Below, in pieces: positions 11,059-30,116 of a DNA stretch of 64,000 bases. How positions within the stretch are numbered: position 1 is the first letter of the stretch; each line of letters starts with the position of its first letter. The position numbers and the translations under genes are program-made. Below the pieces are notes generated by a model, which worked only from the letters and a program-made list of their open reading frames with translations, did no database searches and was not told the DNA's origin. This stretch comes from Candidatus Omnitrophota bacterium (GTDB lineage: Bacteria; Omnitrophota; Omnitrophia; Omnitrophales; Aquincolibacteriaceae). The stretch is taken from positions 274,679-338,678 of the forward strand of contig JAKLIQ010000001.1 in NCBI GenBank assembly GCA_022709525.1, written 5' to 3'.

Positions 11059-12744
11059 ATGGAGCCCGAAAAGAAACCCTCTAACTTTATCCGCGACATC
11101 ATCGATCAGGATATCGCCAACGGCAAGAACGGCGGACGCGTCCACACGCGTTTTCCGCCGGAACCGAACGGCTATCTTCATATCGGACACGCCAAGGCCA
11201 TCTGCATTAGCTTCGGGATCGCGCGCGACTACAAAGGGCTTTGCAACCTCCGTTATGACGACACCAATCCCGTCAAAGAAGACGTCGAATACGTCGATTC
11301 GATCCGCGAAGACGTTCATTGGCTCGGCTTCGATTGGGGGGACCGGGAATATTACGCCTCCGATTATTTCGATCAGCTTCACCAGCACGCCATGACGCTT
11401 ATCAAAAAAGGGAAGGCCTACGTTTGCGATTTGAGTCCGGAGGAACAGCGCCTGCATCGCGGGACGCTCACGGCGCCGGGCAAAGAAAGCCCGAACCGCA
11501 GCCGGTCAGTCGAAGAGAATCTCGATCTTTTTGAGCGCATGCGAAAAGGCGAATTCGCCGAAGGGTCGCGGGTCCTGCGCGCGAAAATCGACATGAATTC
11601 GCCCAATATCAACATGCGCGATCCGACGATGTACCGGATCAAGAAAGCGTCGCATCACCGGACCGGCGACAAATGGTGTATTTATCCGATGTATGATTTC
11701 ACGCACTGCATCTCGGATTCGATCGAAGGGATCACGCACTCGCTTTGCACGCTCGAATTCGAGAACAACCGCCCGCTTTACGACTGGTTCCTGATCGAGC
11801 TCGGGATCCACCGCCCCCAACAAATTGAATTCGCGCGGCTGAATCTAACGCACACGGTCTTAAGCAAGCGCGTCCTTCTGAAACTGGTCCAGCAGAAAAC
11901 CGTCTCCGGATGGGATGATCCGCGGATGCCGACGATCTCCGGGTTTCGCCGCCGGGGCTATACGCCTTCTTCCATAAGGAATTTTTGCGATCAGATCGGT
12001 GTCGCGAAATTCAATAGCACGATCGACATGGTCGTGCTGGAGAATTCGATCCGCGAGGAGCTCAACAAGACTGCGCCGCGCATGATGGCTGTTTTGAAGC
12101 CGCTTAAAGTCGTGATCACGAATTATCCGGAAGGGAAGGCGGAGGACCTTGAGGCCGTCAATAATCCCGAAGACCTTTCCGCAGGTTCGCGTAAGATCCC
12201 TTTCAGCCGCGAGATCTATATCGAAGAAGAAGATTTCCGCGAAGTGCCGCCGCCGAAATATTTCCGATTGGCGCCCGGCCAGGAAGTGCGTCTCCGCTAC
12301 GCTTATTTCATCAAATGCGAAAAAGTGATCAAAGATCACGCGGGTAAGATTAAAGAAATTCATTGCACTTATGACCCCGCAACGCGGGGTGGGAATAATC
12401 CTCCGGACGGTCGCAAGGTCAAAGGGACGATCCATTGGGTTTCGGCCGAACACGCCGTTTCCCCGGAGGTTCGCCTTTACGATCATCTGTTTGCTGCCAA
12501 AGATCCCAATGATTTTCCCGAGGGGAAAGATATTTTTGTGAACCTGAATCCGAACTCATTGGAAATCCTGAAAAGCGCGAAGCTTGAGCCAGCATTAGCT
12601 CAAGTGAAAGCAGGAGAACGCGTCCAATTCGAACGGATGGGTTATTTTATTGCCGACGCTAAGGATTCCCAACCTGGCAAACCGGTTTTCAACCGTATTG
12701 TGACGCTTCGCGACACCTGGGGCAAGATCGAAAAAAAGAGTTAG
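11059..12744 (+). CDS. glnS: Glutaminyl-tRNA synthetase
   Basis: [25 protein letters not shown] (HIGH motif) and a GlnRS-type catalytic core with the C-terminal anticodon-binding beta-barrel region; 561 aa. Confidence 0.9.
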
Positions 12745-13045
12745 ACTGCCCGAACGCCACTCACAGACGACCTACTTTCCCCATTGAAATCCCGATCCTG
12801 CTTTACCGGGTGGCCAAGGGAGAGTGGAAGATCAAAAAAGTCGTTGATAAAACAACCGCTCTAAGGCGTGTTTACGATCCCATCAAATACAGGCCCAGAG
12901 TTGTCCGGGCGCCTTACCCGGGTCCCATGGGACATTCCAATTTTTACCAATGGTGTAGGCGGGAATTGTAGAGAGACATTTATAATAAAGGCCTGAAAAC
13001 AAGCTTCGCCCCAGGGCTTGGAACGGATAAACTCTATAGCAAGGC

Positions 13046-13076
13046 TTGACAATATCATATTCTGAATGCAGAATAT
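13046..13076 (+). promoter_or_regulatory. Candidate promoter/operator of the abiE pair: TTGACA -35-like hexamer followed by an 8-bp inverted repeat ATATTCTG-aatg-CAGAATAT
   Basis: TTGACA at 13046-13051 and a perfect 8-bp-arm palindrome at 13057-13076, ~20 nt upstream of the AbiEi start. AbiEi antitoxins are known to autorepress via inverted repeats in their promoter. Confidence 0.3.
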
Positions 13077-13094
13077 GTCCTGCGGAGACATAAA

Positions 13095-13928
13095 ATGACA
13101 TTAAAGTATAATGTTGCAAAAACCCTTGGTTCCAAGGCGGCCTTGCTGATTGCCGCACTCTACGAGGAGAAGCTCTCTATCTTCAGGTTAACGGATGTCC
13201 AAAGGATTTTGGCGATCAAAAAGCCGTCTGCCACAAATTTTGTTCGGAAACTCGTCAACAGGGGAATTGCATCAAGACTGAAGCCGGGGCTCTTTATCCT
13301 GGTTCCCTTTGAGTTGGGCAAAGAACGTGAATATTTGGGGGACCCCCTGATCGTCGCTCGTGAGATCGCCTGCGGCAAGGGATATTATTTTTCTCATGGC
13401 AGCGCGATGCAAATCCATCAAATGCTGACACAGCCCCAGTTACTTGTATACGCTTCGGTGCTCAAACCGCGGCGCCCGGTCCGCGTGCTCGGCGCTGAGT
13501 TCCAGTTCATCCACACGCCCAGGAAATACTTTTTTGGCGTCGCCGATCATTGGGCCACCAAAGAGACGCAAGTAAAAGTGAGCGATCTTGAGAAAACGGT
13601 GATCGACGGTCTGAGACAGCCTGAATATTGCGGAGGTTTGACCGAGGTCGCAAAAGGCCTTTGGATGAGGCATCAAGACATGAACCCCGCCCGCCTCATT
13701 GAATACGCAAAAAAAACCGGGGTCGGGGCCGTAGTACGCAGGTTGGGATATTTAATGGAACTTTACAAAATTGGAGCGGCCCAAGATCTGGAAGCACTGC
13801 AAAATACACTCACCGAAACTTATATGCGTTTGGATCCCCGCTTGCTGGCCGAGGGGAAATTCCTGCGTCGCTGGAGATTGCAGCTCAATGTTTCTCCGGA
13901 AGAACTCTTAGCCGTCGTGAGGACCTGA
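13095..13928 (+). CDS. AbiEi-like antitoxin/transcriptional regulator (type IV TA / abortive infection)
   Basis: 277 aa. The N-terminal wHTH-like region and overall layout match COG5340/AbiEi-family proteins. Its stop lies 3 nt before the AbiEii-like gene. Confidence 0.65.
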   Translation: MTLKYNVAKTLGSKAALLIAALYEEKLSIFRLTDVQRILAIKKPSATNFVRKLVNRGIASRLKPGLFILVPFELGKEREYLGDPLIVAREIACGKGYYFSHGSAMQIHQMLTQPQLLVYASVLKPRRPVRVLGAEFQFIHTPRKYFFGVADHWATKETQVKVSDLEKTVIDGLRQPEYCGGLTEVAKGLWMRHQDMNPARLIEYAKKTGVGAVVRRLGYLMELYKIGAAQDLEALQNTLTETYMRLDPRLLAEGKFLRRWRLQLNVSPEELLAVVRT

Positions 13929-13931
13929 CCC

Positions 13932-14765
13932 GTGATTCCTCAACGCAATCTCTCTCTACTCTCCAATGAACTTGCCCGCAAAGGCGGACGCCGTATTCCG
14001 GAATCCGTGCTTGAACGCGATTATTGCCTTTCATGGTTTCTCGTAGGCTTATCTCAATGCAGTCTTCGCGAGATCCTTTTATTCAAAGGCGGGACCGCGA
14101 TCAAGAAATGCCACATCGCTGATTACCGTTTTTCCGAAGATCTCGATTTCACTTTTGCGAATGAAATCCCTTTTGAGAAGGTCCAGGAAGACCTTGAACA
14201 AGTGTTCCCTAAAATCGAACAGCAATCGGGCATTAAATTCAATTTCAGCCGGCTTGACCGGCACGCCCATCAAAACAGCCACACTTTTTTTCTGGGTTAC
14301 GAAGGCCCTTTGCCGGCCATGGCTCCCAAGGAAGTCAAAGTGGACATTACGATCCGTGAACGGGTTGTCTTTTCGCCGCAGGAAAAGCCGGTTCTCGCGG
14401 AATACGCCCAATATGAGGACATCCCGAAGAATTCCAAGGTGCGTGTGTACTCCCTCGATGAAATAGCCTCTGAAAAGGTTGTTGCCCTCTCAGACCGAGC
14501 GCGGAATGAACCGCGCGATCTTTACGACTTGTGGCATCTCACCTCAAATCAGCATGTCGATATTGCAGAGATCTTCGACGCCATCGGTGAAAAGCTGACG
14601 TTCCGCAAAAGAAGTTCGGACACTGTGGGAGAAGAATTTTCCAAAAAAGAGGCGCGGCTCAAAAAGCTTTGGAGCGAGCGGCTTTCGGCCCAGGTTTCCG
14701 TACTCCCGGAATTCGACGAGGTTTACCGGACCGTAAAACGGGAACTCCGGCAAGCCGGATTTTGA
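13932..14765 (+). CDS. AbiEii/AbiGii-family nucleotidyltransferase toxin
   Basis: LFKGGTAIKKCH..YRFSEDLDFTF: the hallmark N-terminal motifs of the DUF1814/AbiEii nucleotidyltransferase family. GTG start. Confidence 0.75.
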   Translation: MIPQRNLSLLSNELARKGGRRIPESVLERDYCLSWFLVGLSQCSLREILLFKGGTAIKKCHIADYRFSEDLDFTFANEIPFEKVQEDLEQVFPKIEQQSGIKFNFSRLDRHAHQNSHTFFLGYEGPLPAMAPKEVKVDITIRERVVFSPQEKPVLAEYAQYEDIPKNSKVRVYSLDEIASEKVVALSDRARNEPRDLYDLWHLTSNQHVDIAEIFDAIGEKLTFRKRSSDTVGEEFSKKEARLKKLWSERLSAQVSVLPEFDEVYRTVKRELRQAGF

Positions 14766-14847
14766 AAGACCCCAGGACATTACTCTCGAGATTCAATTTA
14801 CAGCCTCTCCGCCTATCTGATTTACTGTCCGATGCGCATTCAAACGG

Positions 14848-16563
14848 CTACGGCTGAGCCGGTTCTTTCGGCTTCAGGTCCTGGATAATGCCGAGGACGC
14901 GGGGATCGTGGCGCAGGATGTCGGCCTTGATCTTGAGGACACGGGCGCGCAGATTCAGCATGTCTTCGGGCTTAAACCTTTTTTGATAAGGATCATAGTC
15001 CGTTTTCTCCGGATCCTTCCCCGGAACATAGAAAAAACGCCGTTCAATGCATCGCTGGCTTTGCCCGCGGTCGTACCGCGCCATAAAACCCACGCTGACC
15101 CGGCCCCCGCCGATCTCCCATAGCAGCATATTGCTCGCCCTAGCGGTCTCCCTGTTCATCAGTGCTTCAAAATCCCGTTTTTCTACGAGCCGATTATTCC
15201 CCTCAAAGATCCCTTCGTAGAACCGCTTGTATTCCTCGCTTTTCCAAACACTCTCAGGAACACCCGGAAGAAAGAGAGCGCTCCCATCCCGGTTTTTCCG
15301 GTAAAAGGAGCTGAGCCTTGATGAAAAGATCCGGCAGCATTCCGGGGATAGACCTTCAAGATGCGGCTCGAGTGGATACTCTTCCGTAAATTCCTCAGGA
15401 AAGAACAGATAGATGACGGCCTTTTCATTGCAAGAAGAGTACTTCATCCGCCCGGCCATCTCGCAGAAAAGACGGGAAAGAAAATACCGCATGAACTCCG
15501 TGCCTTTGCTTTCCAGCTCGATCAAAAGATGCTTCCCGGAATCCAGGATGTCCTTGATGTCCAAAGGATATCCCTGCGTGACGGGATATTTTTCGAGTCG
15601 CAGGGTATTTCCCCATTTCGTGAGTTTTTTTGCCAACTCAACGCGCGCTTTCCGGAGAGAATCAAAGCGCCATAGGTATTCCCGCGTCAGATCGATCTCG
15701 TTAAGCGCTATGGCTCCGCGCTTGTCCTCTAAGAGCAGAAGGAGATCCTCCAGCGTGTAGGGTTTCCCGCTTTTTTCAAGAGACGTCATCAGCCGTTCCA
15801 GGATACCCGCTCCCGGGCCGTCCCAATCAAGCTTAAGGTGGTCTTTCAAAAAATCAATACTCCCTTTCCCGTAAAATGGCGAATAACTCGCGGAAAGATC
15901 CGGTTGTTTTAACGAGAAGTAAAAAAAGGCTTGCCCCGTTTCGGAACCTCTTTCCCTTAACACATACGTTACTTCCCGGAGAAGGTCCTTCTGAGTCTCG
16001 GAGGCGAGGATCAGGACCGAATGGCCGTATTTAACGTCAGCTTCCAGCGCCTTTTGTAACGTGGAACGGGCGTAAGCTCCCGGCGGACCCAATACCTGCA
16101 GTGGGAAGGCGGGATCAAAAAGAGAAACTGAGACAGGATCACCCGTGACAAGATCCAGGCCCAGGACATCCCGGCTTTTCTGCCGGTCCATGGCGGCCTT
16201 TGCCGCCCGTATTTTTTTCGATCTCCTTCCAAGGATCCATGTTGAAAGAGCCAAGCTGGCCGCAAAAGAATGGGTCCACACCCAGAGCATAAAGATACTG
16301 CACCCATACAAAAATCCGGACTCCCACATCCCCCAAAATTGCTCTCCAAGGAATGGCATGAAGGAAAACCCACGCCCCCCGTGCATGGCATAGTCGATAA
16401 AATCATACGTCCACAAAATGGCTATGATAAGAAACGGGGAATAGCCGGGGACCGGGCCCAAAAACTTTCGGAGCGGCCAGGCACAGAATCGGCCAAGCCA
16501 GCAAGTCCAACCCAAACAAAGCATGAAGAAAACCTCCCAAAAACCCGGATATTCGTCGTCCAT
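14848..16563 (-). CDS. VirD4/TraD-like type IV coupling protein homologue with apparently degenerate Walker A/B motifs
   Basis: N-terminal hydrophobic helices are followed by a domain with the T4CP spacing pattern. The P-loop position reads VLGPPGAYARST (not GxxGxGK[ST]). It is followed by GHSVLILASETQ (where T4CPs have hhhhDpKGE) and ...FFYFSLKQPDLSASYSPF (where they have hhhhDP....NPL). A later hhhh-PEE stretch (IYLFFPEEF) sits at the Walker B DE position. The ATG at 16561-16563 overlaps the stop of the upstream gene by 1 nt (TGATG); the ORF track's longer start at 16656 is less likely. Confidence 0.45.
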   Translation of the reverse strand: MDDEYPGFWEVFFMLCLGWTCWLGRFCAWPLRKFLGPVPGYSPFLIIAILWTYDFIDYAMHGGRGFSFMPFLGEQFWGMWESGFLYGCSIFMLWVWTHSFAASLALSTWILGRRSKKIRAAKAAMDRQKSRDVLGLDLVTGDPVSVSLFDPAFPLQVLGPPGAYARSTLQKALEADVKYGHSVLILASETQKDLLREVTYVLRERGSETGQAFFYFSLKQPDLSASYSPFYGKGSIDFLKDHLKLDWDGPGAGILERLMTSLEKSGKPYTLEDLLLLLEDKRGAIALNEIDLTREYLWRFDSLRKARVELAKKLTKWGNTLRLEKYPVTQGYPLDIKDILDSGKHLLIELESKGTEFMRYFLSRLFCEMAGRMKYSSCNEKAVIYLFFPEEFTEEYPLEPHLEGLSPECCRIFSSRLSSFYRKNRDGSALFLPGVPESVWKSEEYKRFYEGIFEGNNRLVEKRDFEALMNRETARASNMLLWEIGGGRVSVGFMARYDRGQSQRCIERRFFYVPGKDPEKTDYDPYQKRFKPEDMLNLRARVLKIKADILRHDPRVLGIIQDLKPKEPAQP

Positions 16564-17318
16564 CAAAGCACCTCTTTTAAGGCGAAACTCCCGCGCCAGG
16601 TCCTCAGGACCGCCCGCTCCCCGAATTCCATGAGTTCCTTGTAGAGGACAAAGCACATGCGGTCAGCCCATCTTTCGCCCGCTTCTTTCATGACCTTTCC
16701 CCGGATGGAGGCATCCCCGCAAACATAGAAAATGTAACGTATCTTCGGATCGCGCTCATAGACCTCGAATATCTTCCGGTAGGTGTGTGCCTTCTTGACA
16801 TGCAGCTCCACTTCGATGGCGATCCCTTTGCCGTTCCTTCTAAATACGCCGTCCGGCACTTTCCGCTCTCCCTTCGTCCCAGCCCGTAATACTTTCTCGC
16901 TTTTCCAGTCTTTGCACATCCCGAGCCGCTCAAACAAGAACCTCACATCCGTCACTTTTTTGTCATGATCATAGAATGCGATCTCGATCGAATCCTGGGC
17001 ATCAGGAGCACCAAAGCCGCGAACGCCGACTATGCATCCGGCCTCTCTCAGAGCCTCTATACCCGCCTTACCTAAAAGATAGCTTTCAGGTTCGTCAGCT
17101 AAGGTTTTAACCGCTTTCAAATAGCCGAATTTTTTAAGCTTCCTGATCCGGATCTTGGCATAGCTTCTGGCTCCATCAAAGATGTTCTCGATCACATGAG
17201 GCCTTGTTAAAAACTTCTGTTCCACGATCATCTTCATCAGCCGGATATCCCTTTCCGTCACATCCAGATATTTCCAGTTCTGTTTCTTAGGTTCTCTCTT
17301 ACCAGGTGTAGCCTCCAT
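16563..17318 (-). CDS. Replication-relaxation family protein (plasmid/ICE-type wHTH protein)
   Basis: 251 aa; an N-terminal wHTH-like segment (LDVTERDIRLMKMIVEQKFLTRPHVIENIF...) and overall size match the replication-relaxation family, which is usually found beside coupling proteins on conjugative or mobilisable elements. Confidence 0.5.
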   Translation of the reverse strand: MEATPGKREPKKQNWKYLDVTERDIRLMKMIVEQKFLTRPHVIENIFDGARSYAKIRIRKLKKFGYLKAVKTLADEPESYLLGKAGIEALREAGCIVGVRGFGAPDAQDSIEIAFYDHDKKVTDVRFLFERLGMCKDWKSEKVLRAGTKGERKVPDGVFRRNGKGIAIEVELHVKKAHTYRKIFEVYERDPKIRYIFYVCGDASIRGKVMKEAGERWADRMCFVLYKELMEFGERAVLRTWRGSFALKEVL

Positions 17319-17348
17319 TTAATTATACCTCCGCCGATCAATCGTTTC

Positions 17349-17464
17349 TGTTTGCCCGCCACGATTCGACACCGAAGACCACACTCTCGCTCCCATAAGA
17401 GGAGAGAGTGTGGTCTTCGGTAACTGCTGCCAAAAGCAGTAGGGACGAAACGTGGCGGGCAAAC
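17349..17464. repeat. 116-bp nested inverted repeat (outer arms gtttgcccgccacgattcg/cgaaacgtggcgggcaaac; inner perfect 18-bp stem accgaagaccacactctc/gagagtgtggtcttcggt)
   Basis: Seen directly in the sequence. It lies in the 325-bp gap between the small ORF at 17644 and the replication-relaxation gene. It is a candidate oriT/nic region or a structured RNA. Confidence 0.6.
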
Positions 17465-17643
17465 GAGTTACGATGCTTTCGCCTCCACCTTGGTATATAC
17501 GCCCTGCGGAATACATACCAAAGTAGATCCGAAAGTGCAGGAAATCCCGAAAATCCAGATCATTTTCACCGGAGCTTTCATGGAATTTTTCAGGCCAGAA
17601 TTTGCGAGGGAATAGCCGCGAGTGTAGTGTTGCGGGGTTCATT

Positions 17644-17841
17644 TCAGGCGGTCTCTTTTGCCTTTTCCGGGGCCTGGCGGGCCGGGGCTTTCGGGTTTTT
17701 CAAAAGCCCGCGCTTCTCGGCAAGACGGAGCACGCCTTTGGCTAGAAGCTCGCAGGCTTGATCGAGCCTTTCTTCGTCGGAGAGATGGGCATAAACCCGG
17801 TAGACGGGACTTCTGAAGGTGTTCGGGGAAACCACTTTCAT
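17644..17841 (-). CDS. Small (65 aa) hypothetical protein translationally coupled to the upstream wHTH gene
   Basis: Its ATG overlaps the stop of the 17838-18308 ORF (ATGA). No recognisable motif. Confidence 0.35.
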   Translation of the reverse strand: MKVVSPNTFRSPVYRVYAHLSDEERLDQACELLAKGVLRLAEKRGLLKNPKAPARQAPEKAKETA

Positions 17842-18308
17842 TGCGGCTGCTTGTCCTCTACACCAAGAGCCGTGGGAAGGATCTGCTTGGCGCTTTCGGA
17901 AAGATAGAGAAGCTTGGGATTGCCGCGCTCAAGAAAACCAAATTCGATCAAAAGACGGATGCGCTGGAAACCGGCTTTGGCTTTCTTGGAACGGTTGTCC
18001 CAAAAACACCGGGAAAGATCCGCAGAGGTTTTCGCGCCCTCGACCTGCAAAAGCTGGAAGATCAAAAGATCGCGGGCTGTCAGTTGCACGGACCGGACTT
18101 TGGGGAACCTGCCGGGGATCCTATGGCTTTGGGATGTTGTTGGATTTTTTAAGCTTGCGGTTGCCTGTTGTAATGCCACTGCTTCAGTTGGTTCTTTGTG
18201 CATGGTGCATTCCGTTCCTTTCGGACCCTGGTAATCAAGCCTCCGGTGATGTGATGCCCCCTCATGGGACATGGAGTTAAGAGCTTGCCGTTCAACATTT
18301 ACGAACAT
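17838..18308 (-). CDS. Hypothetical wHTH-type DNA-binding protein
   Basis: The C-terminal half (LTARDLLIFQLLQVEGAKTSADLSRCFWDNRSKKAKAGFQRIRLLIEFGFLERG) looks like a winged helix. The true start is probably internal: M at 18272, or M at 18203 which is preceded by a GGAACGG RBS-like sequence. Confidence 0.4.
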   Translation of the reverse strand: MFVNVERQALNSMSHEGASHHRRLDYQGPKGTECTMHKEPTEAVALQQATASLKNPTTSQSHRIPGRFPKVRSVQLTARDLLIFQLLQVEGAKTSADLSRCFWDNRSKKAKAGFQRIRLLIEFGFLERGNPKLLYLSESAKQILPTALGVEDKQPQ

Positions 18309-18612
18309 TTCTAAGCTTGAAATAAATTTTCACGAACATCGATCAGATCCATTAAGCCCGCCGGAAAGACTCCGGATTCGCCGGAAACCAAAACATCAAT
18401 TCCCCCCAAACAAGCCTCTCATGGGAGGTCGAGTTACGACATGGACATTCACACCAAACGAACCTTTCTAAGCTAGAAATAAATTTTTCAGCGGTGTCGG
18501 CCGCGGGTGTTTTCGCTCCGTCGGCCTCCTTTCATCCCCTCATGGGAGGTCCGTTTAAGACAGGGGTGTGAACGTTTTGTGAAGGTTTTTAAGCTTGAAA
18601 CAAATTTTATCT
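18301..18612. repeat. Iteron-like direct repeats: three ~30-bp copies of acgaac(a/c)tttctaagct(t/a)gaaa(t/c)aaatttt and two ~20-bp copies of cc(t)ctcatgggaggtc(g/c)(a/t)tt
   Basis: A-type repeats at ~18301-18333, ~18458-18490 and ~18588-18612; B-type at ~18415-18435 and ~18537-18557. They lie in the 560-bp divergent intergenic region between the wHTH gene and the secreted calpain-like gene. Confidence 0.6.
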
Positions 18613-18984
18613 CAAGGTACCGACCACCCGGGTAAGAGCCCTGGAATGGTTAAGCTCATTGAAGGGTTAAAAACTTTGGGGATAAGGAAAAAGAAAACCG
18701 TCTTAAAGTTTTCTCGTCTTTTTTATGTTCGGTCTTCCAGGCGGATCCAGCCATTGCGGTGTGACGAAGAAATATTCGGAGAGGAGTAAGGGCCGAAAGA
18801 GCCCAGTATCGCTAGAACAAAAGATAGAAGAAACTATATTTCACTATAAACGCTAGTTTTTGCTATGAGGTATTTCGGGCAGGACTTCTTCAAAGGGTAT
18901 TTTAAGATGCTATTCTTTAGTCAGGATGAAGGAAGGTACCGTTGGAACAGCAATAAAGCGGAAGGTTACGCCAAACGGGTGAGA

Positions 18985-21900
18985 ATGATTATGCGAGACG
19001 CAAAGAAGGTGAATACGAAAAAGCTCATCGCTATTTTTACTGCCATCAGTTTGGCATTTTTGCAGGCCGCCCCGGTTGGAGTCGCGGCAAATACCCCTGC
19101 TGATCAGCTTGATGGTAGTGGAGTACATGTACCTGTCAAGTCTGCCACAGATGCACCATCGGAACCCTCGTCTGCGCAGGCGGTAATTCCTCCCAATTTT
19201 TTGATGGATACTGGCGGAATATCAAAAACCGAGGAAACGGAAATTCCGCAAAATGATGAAATCCAGGCGGTTAATCAAGCATTGGACAGTGATCAGCAAG
19301 ATGCTGTTAGTGAATTGGCCCAATATGCTCAAAACCTGACAGATTCAGCACAGCACACCCAATTTGAGGCAGCGTTATCGGAGGCTGCGCCGGATGCTCA
19401 ATACCGATACCGAATTGGTGCTAATGGCGATCAGAGCTGGTCGTGGACGAGCGCGGATGGTGAGACAACCTATACTTTGCATCAGGATCATCGCATGGTC
19501 CCGATCGGGATCGACGGGCAGATGGAAGAGGAAATTCTCTGGAGTTTTGAAGCTTTAAGCATTGTTATGAAAACAGAAGTAGAGCAATGCAGGAGCCAAC
19601 TTCCAGCCGATTCACTGGCCTACTTTGAGGAAGCGCTATCGCAAACAGATGATACAACTGTATTCTCAAGAACCACAATCGGGACGGATACCATTTATCA
19701 ATGGAACGACAAATCGGACGCATCAAAACTTTACACGATTTCTTTTCATCCTGGGCCCAGCGGGACTATCGAAGCGGCTTTCAGCGTTCAAATTGCGATG
19801 ATGCCTTGGGGACTAACGCATTTGGGGCCGATGTTAACAGATATGGCGCAAAGGACACAATTTGAAACAGCCATTTTAGATGTCGCTCCACTTACCCGTG
19901 ATAATTTTGAAACACTCCTTTTGAGAACGACAGATTCAATCGGACGAGTCACATCCTGGACCTGGACGAGCGCGGATGGGCAGACGACGTATGTTTTGCG
20001 CCAGGATCGACGCATAGTTCCTGTTGGAATTGATGGAGAGACGCACGAAGAGGTTCAGTGGAGTTTTGAAATAAAGAGTCAGATATCGGCGTCAGAGGTT
20101 CAGGAAAATATCAACCAAATTGCAAATGAATATGTTCGGGATCAGGCGCAGCAAGCTTTTGATCAATCCGTAGATAATGGGCAACAGACTTTTACAAAGA
20201 TTGTAAACGGTGGAGACATTATCTATCAATGGAATGATGTTATGGATGCATCGGTGGTCCAAACCCTTTTTTACGCACAAAGCCCAATGGGTGGTAACTG
20301 GTCTTTCAGTACGCAAACAGCTTTGGCACCTCAAGGTCTTTCACATCTTGCGGAGAACCTAACGGAAGTTGCTCAACGCGCCCAGTTTGAAACAGCGATC
20401 CTGGATGCCGCGCCATTGAGTCAGGATAATTGGCAGACGCTTCTTACGAGAATCACGGATACCAATGGTCGCGTTACCTCGTGGAGTTGGGTAAATGCTG
20501 ATGGAGGAACGACATATACCTTGCACGAAGATAAGACAACAGCTGGCGCTTCGACATGGAGTTTTGTCGCCGTAATCCAAGTTTCAACCGAGGAAACAAG
20601 GCAAGAGCTCATGTCGTGGGGGACAACTTCTCCTGAACACCTTCAAGTCTTTGAACAAGCGGTTCAACTTGGAGCTGTGTTTACTAAAACCATAAGCGGC
20701 GATCAAGTAAGCTATCAATGGAATTTGCCAATGAGCGGGCTGGCACAATATACCCAAAACCTGACGGATCCAGAACAGCGTACCCAGTTTGAAGCAGCCC
20801 TTTTGGCCGGCGGATACAGCACTCAGTCCTTCAATGGCGGCGGCTCTAATTCTTGGCGTTGGACAAGCGCGGACGGAAATACGGTTTATTTATTGGTTAA
20901 TAATAAATTTCAAGTGCCTATGCCGGACGGCAGCCAGTGGTTTATTGATGAATGGGGATTTTCAGCTGAAAACCAAGTGAGTGCTCAGGACATTAGGGAT
21001 CAGTTGCAAAATATCGGAACTCCCGAGGAACGCAATATGGCGGAGAATGCAATTGCTGACGGAGCGGTATTCAAAAAAATCACAATGGGCGCAACGGCTC
21101 AGTTCCAATGGGAAAGCGTTAGCGACCCAGAGCTTACTTATCAGCTTATGATTATTGACGATAGACTATCGTTTGCTACGATGTTTAATCAAGCTTCGGA
21201 CATTCAGTATGATGCTCAAGGCAATGTAATCAGTACTACATATCGAAACTATGACTGGGATTCCTTGCTTTGGCTGTATATGCCTTCATACGCTACAGTC
21301 TATCCCTCGCCCTCGACAATAAAATATTATGACTCGCAGGGAAATCTCCTTCGCGAATTAATATGGGGCGAATATGGAAACAGAACTCTAATTGTCTATG
21401 GTGACGCCTCCGTAATGGAGATTCCTGGAAAAGTCGAGGTCTATAGCTTTGATCAAAATCTTTATTCCACGCTTTATTATGATCAAAGGGGCTTCCTCAT
21501 ATCTTATGAAGTTTTACCCACTTTTATGAATCAGCTTCGGGCAGCTTTTCCGGCTTTTGAAGTTTCTTCACCGGTTTATATTTCAGGCAGCAACCCTTCT
21601 CTTTTTCAAATTACTATCACCAATCCATCGCCTGCTATGGGGGCATTAAATCAAATGAGTTTCCATGTGGATCAGGAGGGACAAATAGATTTTGATACGC
21701 TCGAAATCACCTATGAAGATACGGAATTTCAATGGTTTGGGGATCAGCTTCTTCTAGGACAAGTAAAAGATTTGCAGCCGAACGCCAATGATATTGAGAT
21801 CCTTACTCTAATATCTCAATTAACCATCGATTATGTCGACACGAACGGAACGATCCAGTTTACTTTGAATGGAACGCCTTACATGGCGGACGCAACGCTA

Positions 21901-23319
21901 TTTTCCATTATTGATACTTACTTGTACGACGATGCCGTGATAAATCGATCAGAAATGCTGTCGCTTTTTGATCGGGTTGAAGATGATGGCATTGTTTCTA
22001 ACGTTGAGTTTAACATTTTAAAAGCGATACAAAACAATCCTAATCATTATCCGGAGCTTGATTATGTGCGTAATCTCACGGATGCGGTAGTCTTTGGTTC
22101 CCTTGCCAATGCCACCTACCAGGGAACTCTGTTGGGGAATCTTTATGGCGGCTCGACTGCAGACCACCTAGAGAAACTGGTGAATAAATGGTTCTTAGGT
22201 TTGGATCATCCGCTTGTGACTACAGATTACTATGGTACTCCTATTTATCAGCAAGTTGCCGGCAATCTTTTTGTGGATGGTGTAAGCTATGCCGATATAT
22301 CACAAGGTGTTATCGGGGATTGTTATTTAATAGCTGCGCTGGGTGAAACGGCGCTTCGAACTCCGGACATTATTACCGATATGTTTATTGACAATGGTGA
22401 CGGCACCTACACGGTTCGATTTTTTAAGGATGGCATGGCCGAATATGTCACTGTTGATCGTCAGCTCCCGGTTCTTTCAGAATTTTTGATTTATGGCGGT
22501 TCGGCTGGTGGAACAACACATATGGCTGATCCCGATGCTGAATTATGGGTAGCGTTAGCTGAAAAGGCTTATGCCCAAATAAATGCAAAATGGAATTCTT
22601 ATGCAGAAAACTCTTATGATGACATCGGTAGAGGCGGGTATATTGATCGAGCCCTTCAAGCGATTACCGGTTTTGCAACTAATACATATGATCTTTTGAA
22701 TAACTTTACCTCAATAGTGTCATCTTGGGCAGCCGGCGGTCTCATAGGGTTGGCGTCGCGGTACGATGCCGTTTCCCCCGTAGTGAGCGGCCACGCGTAT
22801 ACACTGGTAGATTACGATGCGGTAACGCAACTATTTACGCTCTTGAATCCATGGGGGCTCGTCATGACTAATCTTTTGACATTGACTTGGAGTGAGCTTG
22901 AACGGAGCTTCGAAAATTTTTCTGTGGCAACTGGAAGTACAAATACCACGGCGGCAGAACTTGTTTCCAACCCTCAAACAGAAGGCCAGTCCACAACCGG
23001 TTCTGCAGAGGTCGCGTCCCAGAGAAATCCATCTTATGAATCAGTTGTTCAGCTTGAAGCTGCGCCAAATAAAGATGCCGCTGAAAATGTGTTGGATGTG
23101 GGTCTCGAAAAGGAAGAGCAAGAACGACCTGAGGTGGTAGAAAAAAGCACTAAACGCTTTAGAAATCGTTCCGAAAGGCGCTCCAGGGACAGCTATCAGA
23201 CCAGCACTGTTGAAGCGAAACACTTTTTTAGCGAACCGCTTTCCTATCAAAGCGTACTCGATGATTTTTTGTTTCAAAACTTTATCGCACACATGACCCA
23301 AAAGCGTCTCACGGGCTAA
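18985..23319 (+). CDS. Secreted ~1440-aa tandem-repeat protein with a C-terminal calpain-type (peptidase C2-like) cysteine protease domain
   Basis: The likely start MIMRDAKKVNTKKLIAIFTAISLAFLQAAPVGVAA is a signal peptide. The ATG at 18985 follows GGTGAG; the ORF track starts at 18865. Four ~170-aa repeats contain TQFE(A/T)A(L/I)L...W(S/T)WTSADG.TTY.L.QD.R.VP.GIDG..EE..WSFE. The C-terminal domain has QGVIGDCYLIAALG (calpain catalytic Cys), ~165 aa later SGHAYTLVDYD (His), and LLNPWG (Asn). The gene is visibly more AT-rich than its neighbours. Confidence 0.7.
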   Translation: MIMRDAKKVNTKKLIAIFTAISLAFLQAAPVGVAANTPADQLDGSGVHVPVKSATDAPSEPSSAQAVIPPNFLMDTGGISKTEETEIPQNDEIQAVNQALDSDQQDAVSELAQYAQNLTDSAQHTQFEAALSEAAPDAQYRYRIGANGDQSWSWTSADGETTYTLHQDHRMVPIGIDGQMEEEILWSFEALSIVMKTEVEQCRSQLPADSLAYFEEALSQTDDTTVFSRTTIGTDTIYQWNDKSDASKLYTISFHPGPSGTIEAAFSVQIAMMPWGLTHLGPMLTDMAQRTQFETAILDVAPLTRDNFETLLLRTTDSIGRVTSWTWTSADGQTTYVLRQDRRIVPVGIDGETHEEVQWSFEIKSQISASEVQENINQIANEYVRDQAQQAFDQSVDNGQQTFTKIVNGGDIIYQWNDVMDASVVQTLFYAQSPMGGNWSFSTQTALAPQGLSHLAENLTEVAQRAQFETAILDAAPLSQDNWQTLLTRITDTNGRVTSWSWVNADGGTTYTLHEDKTTAGASTWSFVAVIQVSTEETRQELMSWGTTSPEHLQVFEQAVQLGAVFTKTISGDQVSYQWNLPMSGLAQYTQNLTDPEQRTQFEAALLAGGYSTQSFNGGGSNSWRWTSADGNTVYLLVNNKFQVPMPDGSQWFIDEWGFSAENQVSAQDIRDQLQNIGTPEERNMAENAIADGAVFKKITMGATAQFQWESVSDPELTYQLMIIDDRLSFATMFNQASDIQYDAQGNVISTTYRNYDWDSLLWLYMPSYATVYPSPSTIKYYDSQGNLLRELIWGEYGNRTLIVYGDASVMEIPGKVEVYSFDQNLYSTLYYDQRGFLISYEVLPTFMNQLRAAFPAFEVSSPVYISGSNPSLFQITITNPSPAMGALNQMSFHVDQEGQIDFDTLEITYEDTEFQWFGDQLLLGQVKDLQPNANDIEILTLISQLTIDYVDTNGTIQFTLNGTPYMADATLFSIIDTYLYDDAVINRSEMLSLFDRVEDDGIVSNVEFNILKAIQNNPNHYPELDYVRNLTDAVVFGSLANATYQGTLLGNLYGGSTADHLEKLVNKWFLGLDHPLVTTDYYGTPIYQQVAGNLFVDGVSYADISQGVIGDCYLIAALGETALRTPDIITDMFIDNGDGTYTVRFFKDGMAEYVTVDRQLPVLSEFLIYGGSAGGTTHMADPDAELWVALAEKAYAQINAKWNSYAENSYDDIGRGGYIDRALQAITGFATNTYDLLNNFTSIVSSWAAGGLIGLASRYDAVSPVVSGHAYTLVDYDAVTQLFTLLNPWGLVMTNLLTLTWSELERSFENFSVATGSTNTTAAELVSNPQTEGQSTTGSAEVASQRNPSYESVVQLEAAPNKDAAENVLDVGLEKEEQERPEVVEKSTKRFRNRSERRSRDSYQTSTVEAKHFFSEPLSYQSVLDDFLFQNFIAHMTQKRLTG

Positions 23320-23451
23320 TGGTTTCCCTAGCGCTTCAAAATCTTTTGGCAAGACTGCGGTAAAGCAATTTTGACCCGCGGGTCGGAAGTTTTGCCTTTG
23401 GCCCGCTTTAAAATGTCTTTCTTTTTTTGCCTCGAACAGATAATATGCGCC

Positions 23452-25158
23452 ATGCACCCCGAACAGAAGAAAGACAGATTCGTTAATTGCGCCGTTTATA
23501 CCCGCGTATCCGTCGATGAGCGAGCCGCGACGCAAGCTTATTCCACGCTCGACAATCAACGGGATAGCTGTCTCTCCTATATCGAAAGTCAAAAGTCCGA
23601 GGGCTGGCGAGTCTTTAAAACCTATGAAGACTCCGGCCAGTCCGGCGGATCGCTTAACCGCCCCGCCATCAAGCAGTTGATCCATGACATCAAGAAAAAG
23701 CTCATCCAGGTTGTCGTTGTTTACAAGATCGACCGTCTCACGCGAAGCCACCGGGATTTTTATTCGCTTCTGGAAGTTCTGAACGAAAACGGCGTTACCT
23801 TCGTTTCCACCACCCAGCATTTTGAAACCAACTCCCCGGCGGGAAGGCTTTTATTGCACGTCATGCTTGAGTTCGCGCAATTCGAACGGGAAATGGCACA
23901 GGAGCGGACGTACGACAAACGCATCGCGATGGCTCGTAAAGGCATGTACTGCGGAGGAAGGGTGCCGCTTGGATACGACACAAAGAACAAGAAGCTTATC
24001 ATCAATCCCGAAGAGGCCAAGATCGTGCAGCTTTGTTTTGAGCTTTATCCTAAACTCGGGTCCATGGCAAGGGTCAGCCAGCGGTTGAACGAGCTGGGTT
24101 ATCGCACGAAAAAATTCTACGACAAAAGCAAAAAAAACACCGGAAGCAGAGGAAGCATCAAATTTGATAAAAAGAAAGTTTCGACGATCCTGGCCAATCC
24201 TCTGTATATCGGGAAGGTGCGTTTTGTAGATAAAAGCAAAAAAACCTATCTTTTTGATGGGGAGCACAAACCTATCATTAAAGATCTTAAGGTCTGGGAT
24301 GGGGTCCAGAACCTGCTCGTCAGTAACCGCGAAACCCGCAAGAGTTTTAAACAGAATAAATATGAAATGCTCTTTCAGGGTCTTGTCCGCTGCGGAGAAT
24401 GCGGAAGTACGATGAGCAATGCCTCCAAAAGAAAAAACGGGAAGGTTTATCTTTATTATCGCTGTATCGAGGCCATCGCGAAGGGCAAGGATTATTGCTC
24501 CATTCGTACTGTTTCCGGAGAAGCGCTTGAGGAGCTTCTTATTGCAGAATTTAAGGCCCTCGGCAAAAATCAGACGCTTCTCAGGAGATCCATTGAAAAG
24601 GCTAACGGTTTGGCCAAGAAGGGACTTGCGCCCTTGCAGAGGGAGAAAGACGCTGTGGAGGCCCAATTAACGAAAATAAACGGGGATTTAAAGCGGCTGG
24701 TAAATATCATGAAGTCCGAAGATATGCCTCAGAGAAGAGTTCAAACCCTTCTGAGCGAAATGTCGGACCTGGAAGCATCCAAGGAAAAGCTGGAATATGA
24801 GACCCACCGCATTAATACCAACATGCACCATCTTAGCCGGCACGTTATCGACGCGGAGACCTTCACCAAGCTTTTTGCGGAGTTCCCGGCAGTTTTCGAC
24901 ACCTTTGACTTTGAGGAAAGAAGGAAACTCATTGTTCTCTTGGTCAAAGAAGTGATTTATACTCCAACCAAGATCACCGTTAAATTCTGGGGGGATTTAC
25001 CAGAAATGGATTTTGACATTAAGCATCCGCCGGACTGGACACCGCCGCCGGATGACGATGGTGGAGAGGCTAGGGGTAGACCCGGAAATTCCGCCACACA
25101 ACCGGCGGGCAGGCAGGTTTGCTCAAGAGTGTCGAATGGCTGGGGAACTAGGATTTGA
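23452..25158 (+). CDS. Large serine recombinase (resolvase/invertase catalytic domain + recombinase + zinc-ribbon/coiled-coil regions)
   Basis: N-terminal CAVYTRVSVDE...QRD and VVVVYKIDRLTRS motifs of the serine-recombinase catalytic domain. A Cys-rich CGECGSTMS...YRC zinc-ribbon segment is present. The length (~570 aa) is typical of phage/ICE large serine integrases. The 3' end as called overlaps tRNA-Gln, so the true C-terminus is uncertain. Confidence 0.8.
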   Translation: MHPEQKKDRFVNCAVYTRVSVDERAATQAYSTLDNQRDSCLSYIESQKSEGWRVFKTYEDSGQSGGSLNRPAIKQLIHDIKKKLIQVVVVYKIDRLTRSHRDFYSLLEVLNENGVTFVSTTQHFETNSPAGRLLLHVMLEFAQFEREMAQERTYDKRIAMARKGMYCGGRVPLGYDTKNKKLIINPEEAKIVQLCFELYPKLGSMARVSQRLNELGYRTKKFYDKSKKNTGSRGSIKFDKKKVSTILANPLYIGKVRFVDKSKKTYLFDGEHKPIIKDLKVWDGVQNLLVSNRETRKSFKQNKYEMLFQGLVRCGECGSTMSNASKRKNGKVYLYYRCIEAIAKGKDYCSIRTVSGEALEELLIAEFKALGKNQTLLRRSIEKANGLAKKGLAPLQREKDAVEAQLTKINGDLKRLVNIMKSEDMPQRRVQTLLSEMSDLEASKEKLEYETHRINTNMHHLSRHVIDAETFTKLFAEFPAVFDTFDFEERRKLIVLLVKEVIYTPTKITVKFWGDLPEMDFDIKHPPDWTPPPDDDGGEARGRPGNSATQPAGRQVCSRVSNGWGTRI

Positions 25159-25210
25159 ACCTAGACTAGGTGATCCAGAGTCACCTGTGCTACCGTTACA
25201 CCATTCCCCA
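25137..25210 (-). tRNA. tRNA-Gln (anticodon CUG)
   Basis: The reverse complement folds as a cloverleaf: acceptor TGGGGAA/TTCCCCA, anticodon stem GGTGA/TCACC with loop CTCTGGA (anticodon CTG), T-arm CTAGG-TTCAAAT-CCTAG, discriminator G and an encoded CCA. Confidence 0.8.
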
Positions 25211-25416
25211 ACGTAGCTATTTGAAAAAACCTTATTGCGGCAACTCAACATCTGTTACTTAATCATTCGGGGTTCGCAGTCCCGGCTGATCTTCAGCCGG
25301 GGCACCATTCCCCAATGAAAAGCGAACAAAAAACGGAATTCCGGAGAACAAAAAGGACCCAAGTCGCAGGATTATAGCGGGTCTTCAGAACACCGACAAG
25401 AATTCTTCTGACGGGA

Positions 25417-25849
25417 GTGTTTATGGCCATCACAAAAGAAGAGCTGCTCGATCTTTTAAAAAGGGCCTACGAAATGGAAGAGGTCATGGCTTCCACCTTA
25501 CTCAAATTGGCCGAGAAGCCCATTTCGGGGGACAATATTTCCCAGGAAGCAAAAAACAAAATCTCTGGAGTTATCTCAGTCATCAAAAATGACACCCTGG
25601 AGCATCGGAAGATAGTTTCGGAGCTCGTGAAGCGGGTTTCTGGGGGAACTTGTGGATTCTAACGTCTTACTTCAGCGGGTTCGGCAGCTCAATGCGATCG
25701 ATAAAAACGCTCTGGCTATTTATACCGACTTAATGAAAAAGGTTGAGCATCCCGATCTTGTTAAAATTTTTCAGCGACTCGTACGGGATGAAACCAAACA
25801 TGTAAGGCTTGAGAAAGAGCTATTCTCACTTCTTCAAAGCAAGGCCTAG
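25417..25849 (+). pseudogene. Ferritin-like/rubrerythrin-like four-helix-bundle gene split into two frames (25417-25662 and 25652-25849)
   Basis: Both halves carry E..H motifs typical of di-iron ferritin-like helices (NDTLEHRKIV; VRDETKHVRLEKEL) and are separated by a +1 frame change near 25652-25662. This could be a genuine frameshift mutation, a programmed shift or a sequencing error. Confidence 0.3.
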
Positions 25850-25867
25850 ATTTTTCCAAGGAATACT

Positions 25868-27214
25868 ATGACGGTCCGAGGATTGAAAGAATGGGCTAAG
25901 GTTGCGGAGGTCTTTCTTTGGCTGATTTTAGGAGCCACCACCGTTTTTTACGTGATCTCCATAAAATGGCCGCTATTCTTAGACATCAGTTATTACTTCA
26001 TCGTTACTCTCCTGGTCGTGGATTCAGCTTTCTCTTATTGGTTCACGACAAGTGTTTTTAATGATAAAAAATTCGTTCCTCTTCCAACAGCTGAAAACAA
26101 ACCGGTTCCCAGGACCACGTTTATTGTCAGCGCCTATCTGCCCAACGAAGTGGCGGTCATTGAATGCACGCTCCTGAACATTCTTCAAAAAGTCAAAAGG
26201 CCGGCTGACGGCATCGAGGTCATTTTGGCTTACAACACGCCTCATATGGAGGAACTTGAACTAAAGCTTCGGGAGCTTACTTACCGGTGGCCTGAACTGA
26301 TCCTTGCCAATGCTTACGGGTCACGGAGCAAAAGCGAAAATCTAAATTACGCGATCGATCTGGCAAGCGGTCGCATGATAGCACTCTTGGATGCGGATCA
26401 TCTGGTCTCAGAAGATTGTCTCGCGCTTGCCTGGCGATGGCTTGATGAAGGTTACGATGTGGCGCAAGGCAGGTGCAAGGTGCGTAACTGTGAGGAAAGT
26501 ATTCTCGCGAAGCTTGTCGAGATCGAATTCGAGATCATTTACGGCGTTAATCATCTGTCCCGGTCGATCATTTTTGACACGGCCCTTTTCGGAGGGTCCA
26601 ACGGATATTGGAAAGTCGAGGTCCTAAAAAAAGTGAAATTTCTTGAGAATATGCTGACCGAAGATATCGATACAACGCTTCGCGGGGTTCTCGAGGGTTA
26701 CCGGTTCGTGCATGATCGCAGCATTGTCTCTTCGGAATTGGCCCCGACAACGATCCCAAGCTTTTGGTTTCAAAGAAAACGATGGTCTCAGGGGTGGTTC
26801 GAATGTTCGATGAAATATCAAATAGCCATTTGGAGAAATCGGTATTTGAATTTCCAACAAAAATTCATATGGACCATGCTTTTGACCTGGCGCATATTTT
26901 TTGATGTGGTCAGCATGCTGCTTTTTCCGGTCGTTTTTGCTTTCTGGCTTCATTTGGGAAGGATCGCCTTTCCCGTGAATGCGTACATTCTTTTTGCATT
27001 AGTTTTCATTCTTTTTAGCGGGCCTTATCAGGCGTTGATCGCCTATAAAAACGCCGCTCCACCGAAAGCTCCGGTCTGGGAATATCTATTCTATTCTTTC
27101 TTTGTATGGCCCTACACCGTGTTCAAAACCGTTATCCACATCATCGCCATCCGGGATCAGCTAGCAGGGGAGCATTCGTGGATTGTTTCAAAAAGGACCG
27201 CGGCAAAAATATGA
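25868..27214 (+). CDS. Family 2 glycosyltransferase, membrane-integrated processive synthase type (cellulose/chitin/hyaluronan-synthase-like)
   Basis: N-terminal and C-terminal TM helices; GT-A core with DAD (LLDADH), TED (LTEDID) and the Q..RW motif (FQRKRWSQGW). Confidence 0.75.
   Translation: MTVRGLKEWAKVAEVFLWLILGATTVFYVISIKWPLFLDISYYFIVTLLVVDSAFSYWFTTSVFNDKKFVPLPTAENKPVPRTTFIVSAYLPNEVAVIECTLLNILQKVKRPADGIEVILAYNTPHMEELELKLRELTYRWPELILANAYGSRSKSENLNYAIDLASGRMIALLDADHLVSEDCLALAWRWLDEGYDVAQGRCKVRNCEESILAKLVEIEFEIIYGVNHLSRSIIFDTALFGGSNGYWKVEVLKKVKFLENMLTEDIDTTLRGVLEGYRFVHDRSIVSSELAPTTIPSFWFQRKRWSQGWFECSMKYQIAIWRNRYLNFQQKFIWTMLLTWRIFFDVVSMLLFPVVFAFWLHLGRIAFPVNAYILFALVFILFSGPYQALIAYKNAAPPKAPVWEYLFYSFFVWPYTVFKTVIHIIAIRDQLAGEHSWIVSKRTAAKI

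Positions 27215-27889: not shown

Positions 27890-30116
<2,227 letters not shown>

Follow-up and report, generated by a model that had tools for sequence, protein, structure and literature searches.

The stretch of DNA analysed here, called the window below, comprises 64,000 nucleotides (nt) of a Candidatus Omnitrophota bacterium, a member of an uncultured phylum of very small bacteria, and is part of a 550-kb contig from the JGI sample 3300010429. Its glutaminyl-tRNA synthetase (GlnRS) is 87% identical to the GlnRS of a Candidatus Omnitrophota metagenome-assembled genome (MAG). The subject of this study is the island between glnS on the left and a tRNA-Gln(CUG) gene on the right, which an earlier note, made from the sequence alone, had described as an integrated mobile island with defence, transfer-like and secreted-effector genes. 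Both flanking genes were found where that note put them, and so were most of the features that it listed, though its VirD4/TraD-like and winged helix-turn-helix (wHTH) calls proved weaker than claimed. Related loci and contigs compared with the window are referred to by L-numbers (such as L001, L096 or L141; L142 is AP029180.1). The features are listed in window coordinates, with aa for amino acids, LSR for large serine recombinase, att for attachment site and T4CP for type IV coupling protein.

9005-10369, plus strand: gltX
10510-11035, plus strand: small toxin-antitoxin-like pair
11059-12744, plus strand: glnS (tRNA-synt_1c, E 5e-113)
12746-12748, plus strand: attL crossover zone, directly 3' of the glnS stop codon, with CTG in common with attR and the predicted crossover TG at 12747-12748
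12746-12971, plus strand: predicted P' arm of attP and detached 3' end of the LSR gene, start-less, on the same strand as the LSR
13095-13928, plus strand: AbiEi antitoxin/regulator, cargo (Pfam E 6e-7, PADLOC 1.4e-75)
13932-14765, plus strand: AbiEii nucleotidyltransferase toxin, cargo (Pfam E 2e-39, PADLOC 3.2e-80)
14848-16563, minus strand: 571-aa membrane-anchored, very divergent T4CP-like protein, true start at an ATGA overlap
16563-17318, minus strand: 251-aa Replic_Relax protein, putative relaxase (PF13814)
17349-17478, minus strand: nested hairpin, candidate origin of transfer (oriT), between the 65-aa gene and the relaxase gene
17644-17841, minus strand: 65-aa conserved module protein, no assigned function
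17838-18203, minus strand: 121-aa conserved module protein, probably wHTH
18258-18608, no strand assigned: three 73-nt direct repeats upstream of the module operon
18865-23319, plus strand: 1484-aa calpain-domain repeat protein, cargo (Peptidase_C2)
23452-25158, plus strand: LSR in its integrated-state form, 568 aa (Resolvase, Recombinase and Zn_ribbon_recom domains)
25140-25142, plus strand: attR crossover zone (CTG) at the CCA/discriminator end of the tRNA, with the crossover TG predicted at 25141-25142
25137-25210, minus strand: tRNA-Gln(CUG), predicted host target gene, left intact

The LSR of the window has the domain order of its class, an N-terminal resolvase domain followed by Recombinase and zinc-ribbon domains (PF00239, E 3.5e-36; PF07508, E 4.4e-14; PF13408, E 1.3e-14), and it matches the integrase family phrog_95. 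Where are the ends of the DNA that it might have inserted? The earlier note had found no att duplication and had inferred ends at 12745 and 25215. A long terminal direct repeat is indeed missing, and no displaced copy of the tRNA 3' end occurs as a direct repeat elsewhere in the window, so an att model of the tyrosine-integrase style was dropped. Att sites do exist, however, in the form that the note had proposed to look for at both ends, a short imperfect dyad around a 2-bp crossover, and the inferred ends fall a few bases from attL and about 70 bases from attR. The right junction, attR, reads ...GAGTGTCGAATGG CTG GGGAAC..., and the left junction, attL, reads ...AAGAGTTAGA CTG CCCGAACGCCACTC...; only CTG is common to the two. 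In the window, the conserved coding of the LSR stops at AAT GG|C (25135-25140), the last 6 codons of the gene being antisense tRNA, and the B arm of attL is the stop-codon region of glnS.

When the left side of attR is joined in silico to the right side of attL, an in-frame LSR open reading frame (ORF) of 637 aa results. The predicted attP formed in this way, GCTCAAGAGTGTCGAATGGCTGCCCGAACGCCACTCACAGACGACC, shows the dyad GAGTGTCG-N14-CGCCACTC, with the TG of the shared CTG at its centre, and the predicted attB is GATCGAAAAAAAGAGTTAGACTGGGGAACTAGGATTTGAACC; short sites of this kind fit the serine-integrase type. The central 83 nt of attP are matched at 82 positions by an unbroken sequence in L141, an independent contig, where a decayed remnant of the LSR 3' end passes directly into the tail, the detached part that lies next to glnS in the window. 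Shorter remnants of the same kind are found in L100 and L098b. Because of the in-frame join, the dyad and the match to contiguous sequence in L141, we conclude that the predicted attP lies inside the LSR ORF, which came as a surprise, and that integration at the CCA end of the tRNA splits the gene.

Do related recombinases stand at tRNA genes as well? A metagenome scan with the LSR as query gave 37 loci with 42-97% identity. Across them the conserved coding ends with ...QVRxxVSNG (AAT GG|C); L106 alone departs from the others sooner, after QVR. On the opposite strand, 22 of the 37 have a tRNA 3' end that starts where the LSR coding ends. The tRNA is Gln-CUG in nine of them (the window is additional), Gln-UUG in three and Asn-GUU in five; one more, L114, has a tRNA-like 3' end that is only partial because the contig stops there, and in the remaining four the tRNA-like 3' end is interrupted. 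Past AAT GG|C the LSR ORF continues through the antisense tRNA to a chance stop, and the LSR C-termini therefore vary with the tRNA. At the junction the LSR keeps about 25 nt almost unchanged across the loci; the coding that directly precedes them varies strongly. At the other side of the gene, homology of the window to L104-L107 and L138 sets in abruptly at 23399-23410, shortly before the LSR gene begins, and 23399-25211 is all that the window has in common with them.

The interrupted junctions deserve a description of their own. In L136 (10988-11182) the tRNA-like 3' end at the LSR junction is not called by ARAGORN and is followed by a group I intron (RF00028, 71 bits), the one case of the four in which Rfam confirmed such an intron; L116, L122 and L123 resemble this junction by sequence similarity. 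A junction of this type is likely an intron-containing tRNA. There are also repeats at the 5' end of the tRNA. In the window, two copies of a 13-nt repeat of the tRNA 5' end, CACCATTCCCCAA, stand at 25199-25211 and 25304-25316 and flank the 104 nt upstream of the tRNA (25212-25315) that are missing in L140. In L111 (4989-5210) two tandem 111-nt units of tRNA 5' sequence are broken by a palindromic insert of about 85 nt, and L112 (2329-2460) has a similar repeat. The 13-nt repeat to the right of the tRNA was tried as an att site and rejected: L140 has the LSR and the tRNA without the repeat, and the junction evidence lies entirely at the 3' end. The LSR junction there does not explain the 5'-end repeats.

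The detached end of the gene was then followed in the same way. The far-end fragment consists of 73 codons without a start and encodes (C)PNATHRRPTFPIEIPILLYRVAKGEWK...RAPYPGP...REL*. The 85 nt directly 3' of the glnS stop codon match L098-L103 at 82-89% identity. In those loci the matches come after the coupling-protein gene and the cargo that goes with it, and their relative orientation is that of the window. Differences among the copies are mostly synonymous in one frame, with a ratio of nonsynonymous to synonymous differences (pN/pS) of 0.12-0.52. Reading these 85 nt as an RNA was rejected: there is no Rfam match, and the pattern of synonymous changes shows that they are coding. The tail fragment is under purifying selection, and there is no start codon in any copy. 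It starts at CT[G/C]CCCGA in the window, L096, L098 (twice), L100, L102 (twice), L131, L143 and seven further database proteins, and the sequences upstream of these copies are unrelated to one another. Directly after CCA, outside attL, a hairpin and a T-run in the orientation of the tRNA strand were seen by inspection in L096, L131 and L143; this is what a displaced tRNA terminator would be expected to look like. A protein search for the LSR plus the tail gave only short gene calls on tail fragments.

Two side observations concern the tail. L098 equals L100 plus a 2-kb cassette between two tail copies (L098 12972-15090 against L100 13119-13293); the cassette holds an AAA_14/DUF4143 gene and a 119-aa gene, and each tail copy is preceded by LSR-3'-like sequence. 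It looks like tandem accretion, or like a second element decaying at the same site. In the window, glnS ends with ...GAA AAA AAG AGT TAG (12729-12750). The heptamer A AAA AAG in this sequence closely precedes the LSR-tail frame, and that frame is -1 with respect to glnS, probably by chance.

Between the two parts of the LSR gene, the four minus-strand genes at 14848-18203 are tightly packed and were read as a single operon. Is there a relaxase among them? The earlier note had seen none. That statement did not hold, because the Replic_Relax gene belongs to PF13814, the domain labelled MobC by CONJscan and treated as a relaxase superfamily (Rel_PF13814/MobC) of integrative and mobilizable elements (IMEs) (PMC5357655); PF13814 has been assigned the PD-(D/E)XK fold (PMC3424549). 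The protein of the window is above the Pfam gathering cut-off (28.3 versus 25.3 bits) and outside the NCBIfam family MobC_subf (40.5 bits versus a cut-off of 200), of which it is a distant relative, and it is 24-27% identical at most to any PLSDB plasmid protein. Its residues E112, H118, D119, P155-D156-G157, E169, E171 and K175 are invariant in 8 homologues; the single-sequence model has a predicted local distance difference test score (pLDDT) of 31. Sequence searches of the PDB with this protein and with the 121-aa protein gave nothing significant. No other MOB family and no gene of a type IV secretion system (T4SS) was found in the island ORFs with Pfam, NCBIfam and PHROGs.

Between the relaxase candidate and the 65-aa gene, the segment 17350-17464 folds into a nested hairpin at -53 kcal/mol (z = -10.8), and none of 200 shuffles did as well. 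The hairpin is kept in nine loci, with compensatory changes in 12 of 25 pairs, and no Rfam family matches it. It is the likely oriT and is treated as a candidate here. The hairpin lies within a 107-aa "ORF" (17319-17642), probably no true gene.

At the upstream end of the operon, the wHTH gene and the small ORF of the earlier note are both present, but the wHTH assignment goes back to weak matches, HTH_20 in 4 of 11 homologues of the 121-aa protein and HTH_24 in 3 of 11. The note had also called the direct repeats iteron-like. This reading found no support. An imperfect palindrome, TTCTAAGCTTGAA, closes each of the three 73-nt repeats, which precede the wHTH-like gene, and only the closest relatives have the motif. 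Operators fit the repeats at least as well as iterons. In distant versions of the module a divergent gene for an HTH_3 plus Peptidase_S24 (LexA/CI-like) repressor was observed (L098 6906-7877, L100 7037-8011, L102 6984-7940). A repressor gene there, against palindrome-ended repeats at the equal position in the clade of the window, hints that the module is regulated differently.

The 571-aa protein needs more care. It has no direct match in Pfam, NCBIfam, PHROG or PADLOC, and just 12 homologues were found among 5.8 billion proteins, both source-named ones being proteins of Omnitrophota MAGs. A family profile found 44 proteins among 1.84 billion representatives, and its remote hits are T4CPs in 9 of 10 tested cases. 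Foldseek put TrwB first (E 2e-5), with a template-modelling (TM) score of 0.25-0.31, and also found Cag-beta. By profile, Foldseek and hhalign, the protein has the parts expected of a T4CP homologue, an N-terminal membrane anchor (the model has long N-terminal helices at residues 8-127) and a P-loop domain with an inserted all-alpha domain. Its Walker A motif is another matter: instead of GxxGxGK[ST], all full-length members of the family have GxxGxAR[SND]. In the window the motif is GPPGAYARS (residues 159-167), and because G159 and R166 are invariant throughout the family, the Walker A lysine is replaced in every member. When aligned by hhalign, this P-loop is set against the ILGQPGVGKS of a canonical T4CP, that of pBdHAGR4. 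The VirD4/TraD-like call of the earlier note is thus borne out by the reach of the family profile and by TrwB at the top in Foldseek, but not by any direct hidden Markov model (HMM) match or by the degenerate Walker A. From its sequence, the protein is best described as one that works like a T4CP, or derives from one, and not as a canonical member.

Does the island behave as a unit in other genomes? On contigs that carry homologues of the 571-aa protein, the four module genes recur in other genomic contexts. L096 shares 13039-18731 of the window at 83% nucleotide identity with different flanks, and L097 shares only 14866-18615. In distant relatives the module is preceded by the divergent repressor gene and followed by variable defence-type genes. 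In six further loci the module precedes the LSR by 4-9 kb, with the same divergent orientation that the window shows. Three elements could be read as a whole, and in each of them the LSR-tRNA end, the module and the tail follow the same order and orientation: the window (12.4 kb), L108+L098 (23.3 kb, the two loci overlapping at 100% identity) and the contig Ga0268299_1000148 (about 40 kb).

The cargo upstream of the LSR differs by locus and includes giant ORFs, a kdp operon, type I restriction-modification, an Upf1-like helicase-nuclease and methylases. Very large ORFs are common on this side, such as those of 2395 aa in L106, 2264 aa in L115 and 1881 aa in L118. In the window, the AbiEi and AbiEii genes named in the earlier note are adjacent, and both Pfam and PADLOC identify the pair. 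The large repeat protein likewise has the calpain-like domain ascribed to it (Peptidase_C2, E 1e-23) and internal repeats; its N-terminal signal-peptide-like segment was recognised by inspection only.

Does the composition of the island deviate from that of the host? Measured by tetranucleotide correlation with the rest of the window, host segments reach r 0.91-0.96, the module 0.83 (GC 0.52), the AbiE part 0.77 (GC 0.50), the LSR gene 0.73 (GC 0.485) and the calpain-like gene 0.48 (GC 0.455). The shift is therefore real for the calpain-like gene, as the earlier note had seen, and for the LSR, but smaller for 12746-18308 (GC about 0.50-0.52, r 0.77-0.83), and the host flank 25140-28000 is deviant too (r 0.73, GC 0.462). 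This flank is conserved in L140 and equally deviant, so composition supports a foreign origin of the cargo and is not a clean boundary marker. The flank holds 79-aa and 65-aa ORFs, a family 2 (GT2) glycosyltransferase and a tadA-like deaminase, and is as AT-rich as the LSR gene.

What stands at the same place in relatives? The closest different species, L001 (GlnRS 87% identical), has unrelated sequence after glnS and no tRNA, and its contig ends 411 nt later. A scan of contigs with glnS relatives gave no clean empty site, the two closest contigs ending 100-400 nt after glnS. In L105 (2826-7782; LSR 90% and GlnRS 87% identical), gltX, glnS and tRNA-Gln lie on one strand and the LSR follows the tRNA; LSR and tRNA thus adjoin glnS there, with an arrangement and cargo unlike those of the window. 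This suggests that tRNA and element were inverted together or that the arrangement is independent. The earlier note had held that its island would fall if relatives carried the same block at the same position or if no composition shift could be measured. Neither was found: L001 has unrelated sequence, L105 a different arrangement, and the shift is measurable.

Further to the left, the gltX-glnS interval 10510-11035 holds two overlapping 90-aa ORFs in a low-GC patch (0.435), the second with weak BrnA/CopG-antitoxin matches below cut-off. L105 lacks the pair and has a gap of 79 nt between gltX and glnS, but L001 has the region. About 1.4 kb upstream of gltX, with a NAD kinase gene and a response-regulator gene between, there is a 2511-residue gene call (window 1059-7624, L081 1-6566) that runs off the upstream end of the locus.

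Taken together, the segment 12746-25142 is very probably one IME, inserted by its LSR at the 3' end of tRNA-Gln(CUG), with attP inside the LSR ORF and with a transfer module and cargo. The family to which it belongs has so far been seen only in Candidatus Omnitrophota. Its boundaries, the geometry of the split gene, the recurrence of the LSR at tRNAs and of the module, and the variability of the cargo can be read directly from the loci compared. The island has its own LSR integrase and a PF13814 relaxase candidate, with a candidate oriT, as an IME should. Mating-pore genes (VirB4, VirB6, pilin or related) are not found in the island ORFs with Pfam, NCBIfam or PHROGs, which agrees with an IME; an integrative and conjugative element would need a complete T4SS including a VirB4-type ATPase, and the island has none. 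In this respect the earlier note was right that the island between glnS and tRNA-Gln would be mobilisable rather than self-transmissible.

The following scenario may be drawn. In the circular form the LSR would have 637 aa, with attP within the 3' part of its ORF. It inserted the element at the CCA (3') end of the host tRNA-Gln(CUG), and the tRNA is whole. Integration has split the LSR gene into 562 conserved codons by the tRNA (attR) and 73 codons 12.4 kb away by glnS (attL), the Cys codon between the two parts spanning the crossover. The conserved transfer module comprises the wHTH-like protein, the 65-aa protein, the hairpin as likely oriT, the PD-(D/E)XK relaxase candidate and the divergent coupling protein, and there are two cargo slots, taken here by AbiE and the calpain-like secreted protein. 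The element may still excise, the relaxase may nick the hairpin, transfer might go through the mating pore of another element, and the two LSR isoforms might differ in activity. From the last point a further, quite speculative and rather doubtful idea follows, that the split is a built-in directionality switch, in which the 637-aa form integrates and the form with the 562-residue core (568 aa here) behaves differently. The integrated element would then express only the 562-residue core with a few junk residues, and this shorter LSR might excise without a separate directionality factor, or might stay inactive until the tail is restored.

Several observations weigh against the IME as drawn. No T4SS is visible in the island. 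The model of the 571-aa protein is poor (pLDDT 56, TM 0.25-0.31), and as no member of its family has the Walker A lysine, the coupling protein may not hydrolyse ATP. The B arm of attL in the window lacks the TGG present in other attL B arms. No intact ORF of LSR plus tail occurs in the database of 5.8 billion proteins, where only split forms and decayed P-O-P' remnants were met. The module half has a composition close to that of the host. Relative to glnS, the tRNA of L105 points the other way from that of the window, so a secondary rearrangement at this end is possible. Neither an empty site nor a circular junction was found among 15 same-strain contigs (those with an identical GlnRS or an identical right-flank glycosyltransferase), all 15 of which are collinear with the window.

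Is the element then still moving? It could be a fixed, decaying remnant, with a truncated LSR, an ATPase-dead coupling protein and a cargo that is being domesticated or lost. This concerns present activity and not origin, and is compatible with an IME. The presence of the island in all same-strain contigs from several samples without an alternative junction speaks for it, as do the missing attP and LSR relatives in viral contigs, the many decayed LSR-3'/tail remnants in relatives (L141, L100, L098b and the second copy in L102) and the degenerate Walker A. However, the ORFs of the LSR, the relaxase, the T4CP-like protein and the tail are all intact in the window and conserved across loci that are just 35-90% identical, and the elements occupy different host contexts. 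The tail, moreover, keeps a pN/pS below 0.5 though it cannot be translated when integrated, which implies recurrent passage through a circular form. We regard a dead remnant as possible, if on balance unlikely.

The island might also be no unit at all: an LSR with cargo at the tRNA would neighbour a separate chromosomal module (wHTH-like gene, relaxase candidate and T4CP-like gene) that anchors defence genes, the tail being an independent small gene. The two halves differ in composition; L098-L103 have the module without an LSR within 10 kb, and in L106, L113, L121, L124, L131, L133 and L134 the 8-10 kb next to the LSR contain no module. On contigs that are long enough, though, the LSR and the module share one element in 3 of 3 cases, and the tail lies on the far side of the module. 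An independent gene is also hard to reconcile with a tail that has no conserved start codon, whose beginning coincides exactly with the crossover in at least 10 unrelated contexts and which is contiguous with LSR 3' coding in L141, L100 and L098b, so that two unrelated neighbours are improbable. A prophage or phage satellite integrated at the tRNA, to which the LSR (phrog_95, E 1.6e-116) and the tRNA target would be suited, is most improbable, as there are no capsid, terminase, portal, tail or lysis genes among the island ORFs, no LSR relative or attP sequence was found in 2.9 million viral contigs, and the relaxase candidate and T4CP point to conjugative mobilisation.

If the IME reading holds, what does it offer? 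We know of no earlier mobile-element family in Omnitrophota, and no search for one was made. An IME family with exact boundaries and a recognisable module would give a handle on gene flow in this phylum, including that of defence systems and giant secreted proteins. The family offers LSRs specific for tRNA ends with defined attP and attB sequences, and if the isoforms differ in activity, there would be a new and simple control of directionality that could interest engineers of serine integrases. The coupling protein, conserved while its Walker A lysine is replaced in every member, raises the question of how it works.

Among known systems, the closest comparison is with IMEs of Firmicutes that combine a serine recombinase with a Rel_PF13814/MobC relaxase and a coupling protein of their own (PMC5357655). 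Like these, the element of the window has a site-specific integrase, a PF13814 gene and a T4CP, lacks mating-pore genes and is modular with variable cargo. Unlike them, it has an Omnitrophota host, a tRNA 3' end as target and attP inside the integrase ORF, its T4CP has a degenerate P-loop and no direct T4CP HMM match, and its relaxase-family protein reaches only 24-27% identity to any PLSDB plasmid protein. The gene order is met again in the Bdellovibrio plasmid pBdHAGR4 (AP029180.1), where a 251-aa Replic_Relax-like gene overlaps the start of the T4CP gene as in the window; pBdHAGR4, however, is a plasmid, its T4CP has the canonical ILGQPGVGKS, and identity is 24%. MOB-suite typed this plasmid (L142 4822-7747) as "non-mobilizable", and with a Replic_Relax-like gene overlapping a T4CP gene it may be mobilisable despite the typing. 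As to the integrase itself, its best NCBIfam matches, SCCmec CcrB and Anabaena XisF, share with it the three-domain architecture with a coiled-coil and short att sites without long repeats, but the LSR of the window scores far below the family cut-offs (CcrB 188 versus 900, XisF 153 versus 375).

No attP inside the ORF of a serine integrase was found in a limited literature search, which does not prove absence. The sre gene of phage R4 may have its attP inside the ORF, which the literature searched did not confirm. The LSR described here may be the first serine integrase shown with attP inside its own ORF and with free and integrated states that encode different isoforms. The split itself has a parallel in the SSV-type ("suicidal") tyrosine integrases of archaeal viruses and plasmids, which have att in the integrase ORF and whose gene is split on integration (PMC7253208, PMC8371274). 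As there, att lies inside the integrase ORF, fragments stand at the element ends and the target is a tRNA. The SSV-type enzymes, however, are tyrosine integrases of archaea and are destroyed, whereas the LSR is a bacterial serine integrase that loses no more than a C-terminal extension of 73 aa and keeps every catalytic and DNA-binding domain on the attR side. The gene is partitioned in the same manner and there is no tyrosine catalytic domain; the resemblance is one of analogy. Mycobacteriophage BPs and its relatives, with their integration-dependent immunity, carry attP inside the 3' part of the repressor gene (PMC4557955). In both cases the free and integrated states give proteins with different C-termini; in BPs the repressor is split by a tyrosine integrase, while in the window the serine integrase itself is split. 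If the switch is true, it would be the serine-integrase counterpart of the archaeal split integrases and of integration-dependent immunity.

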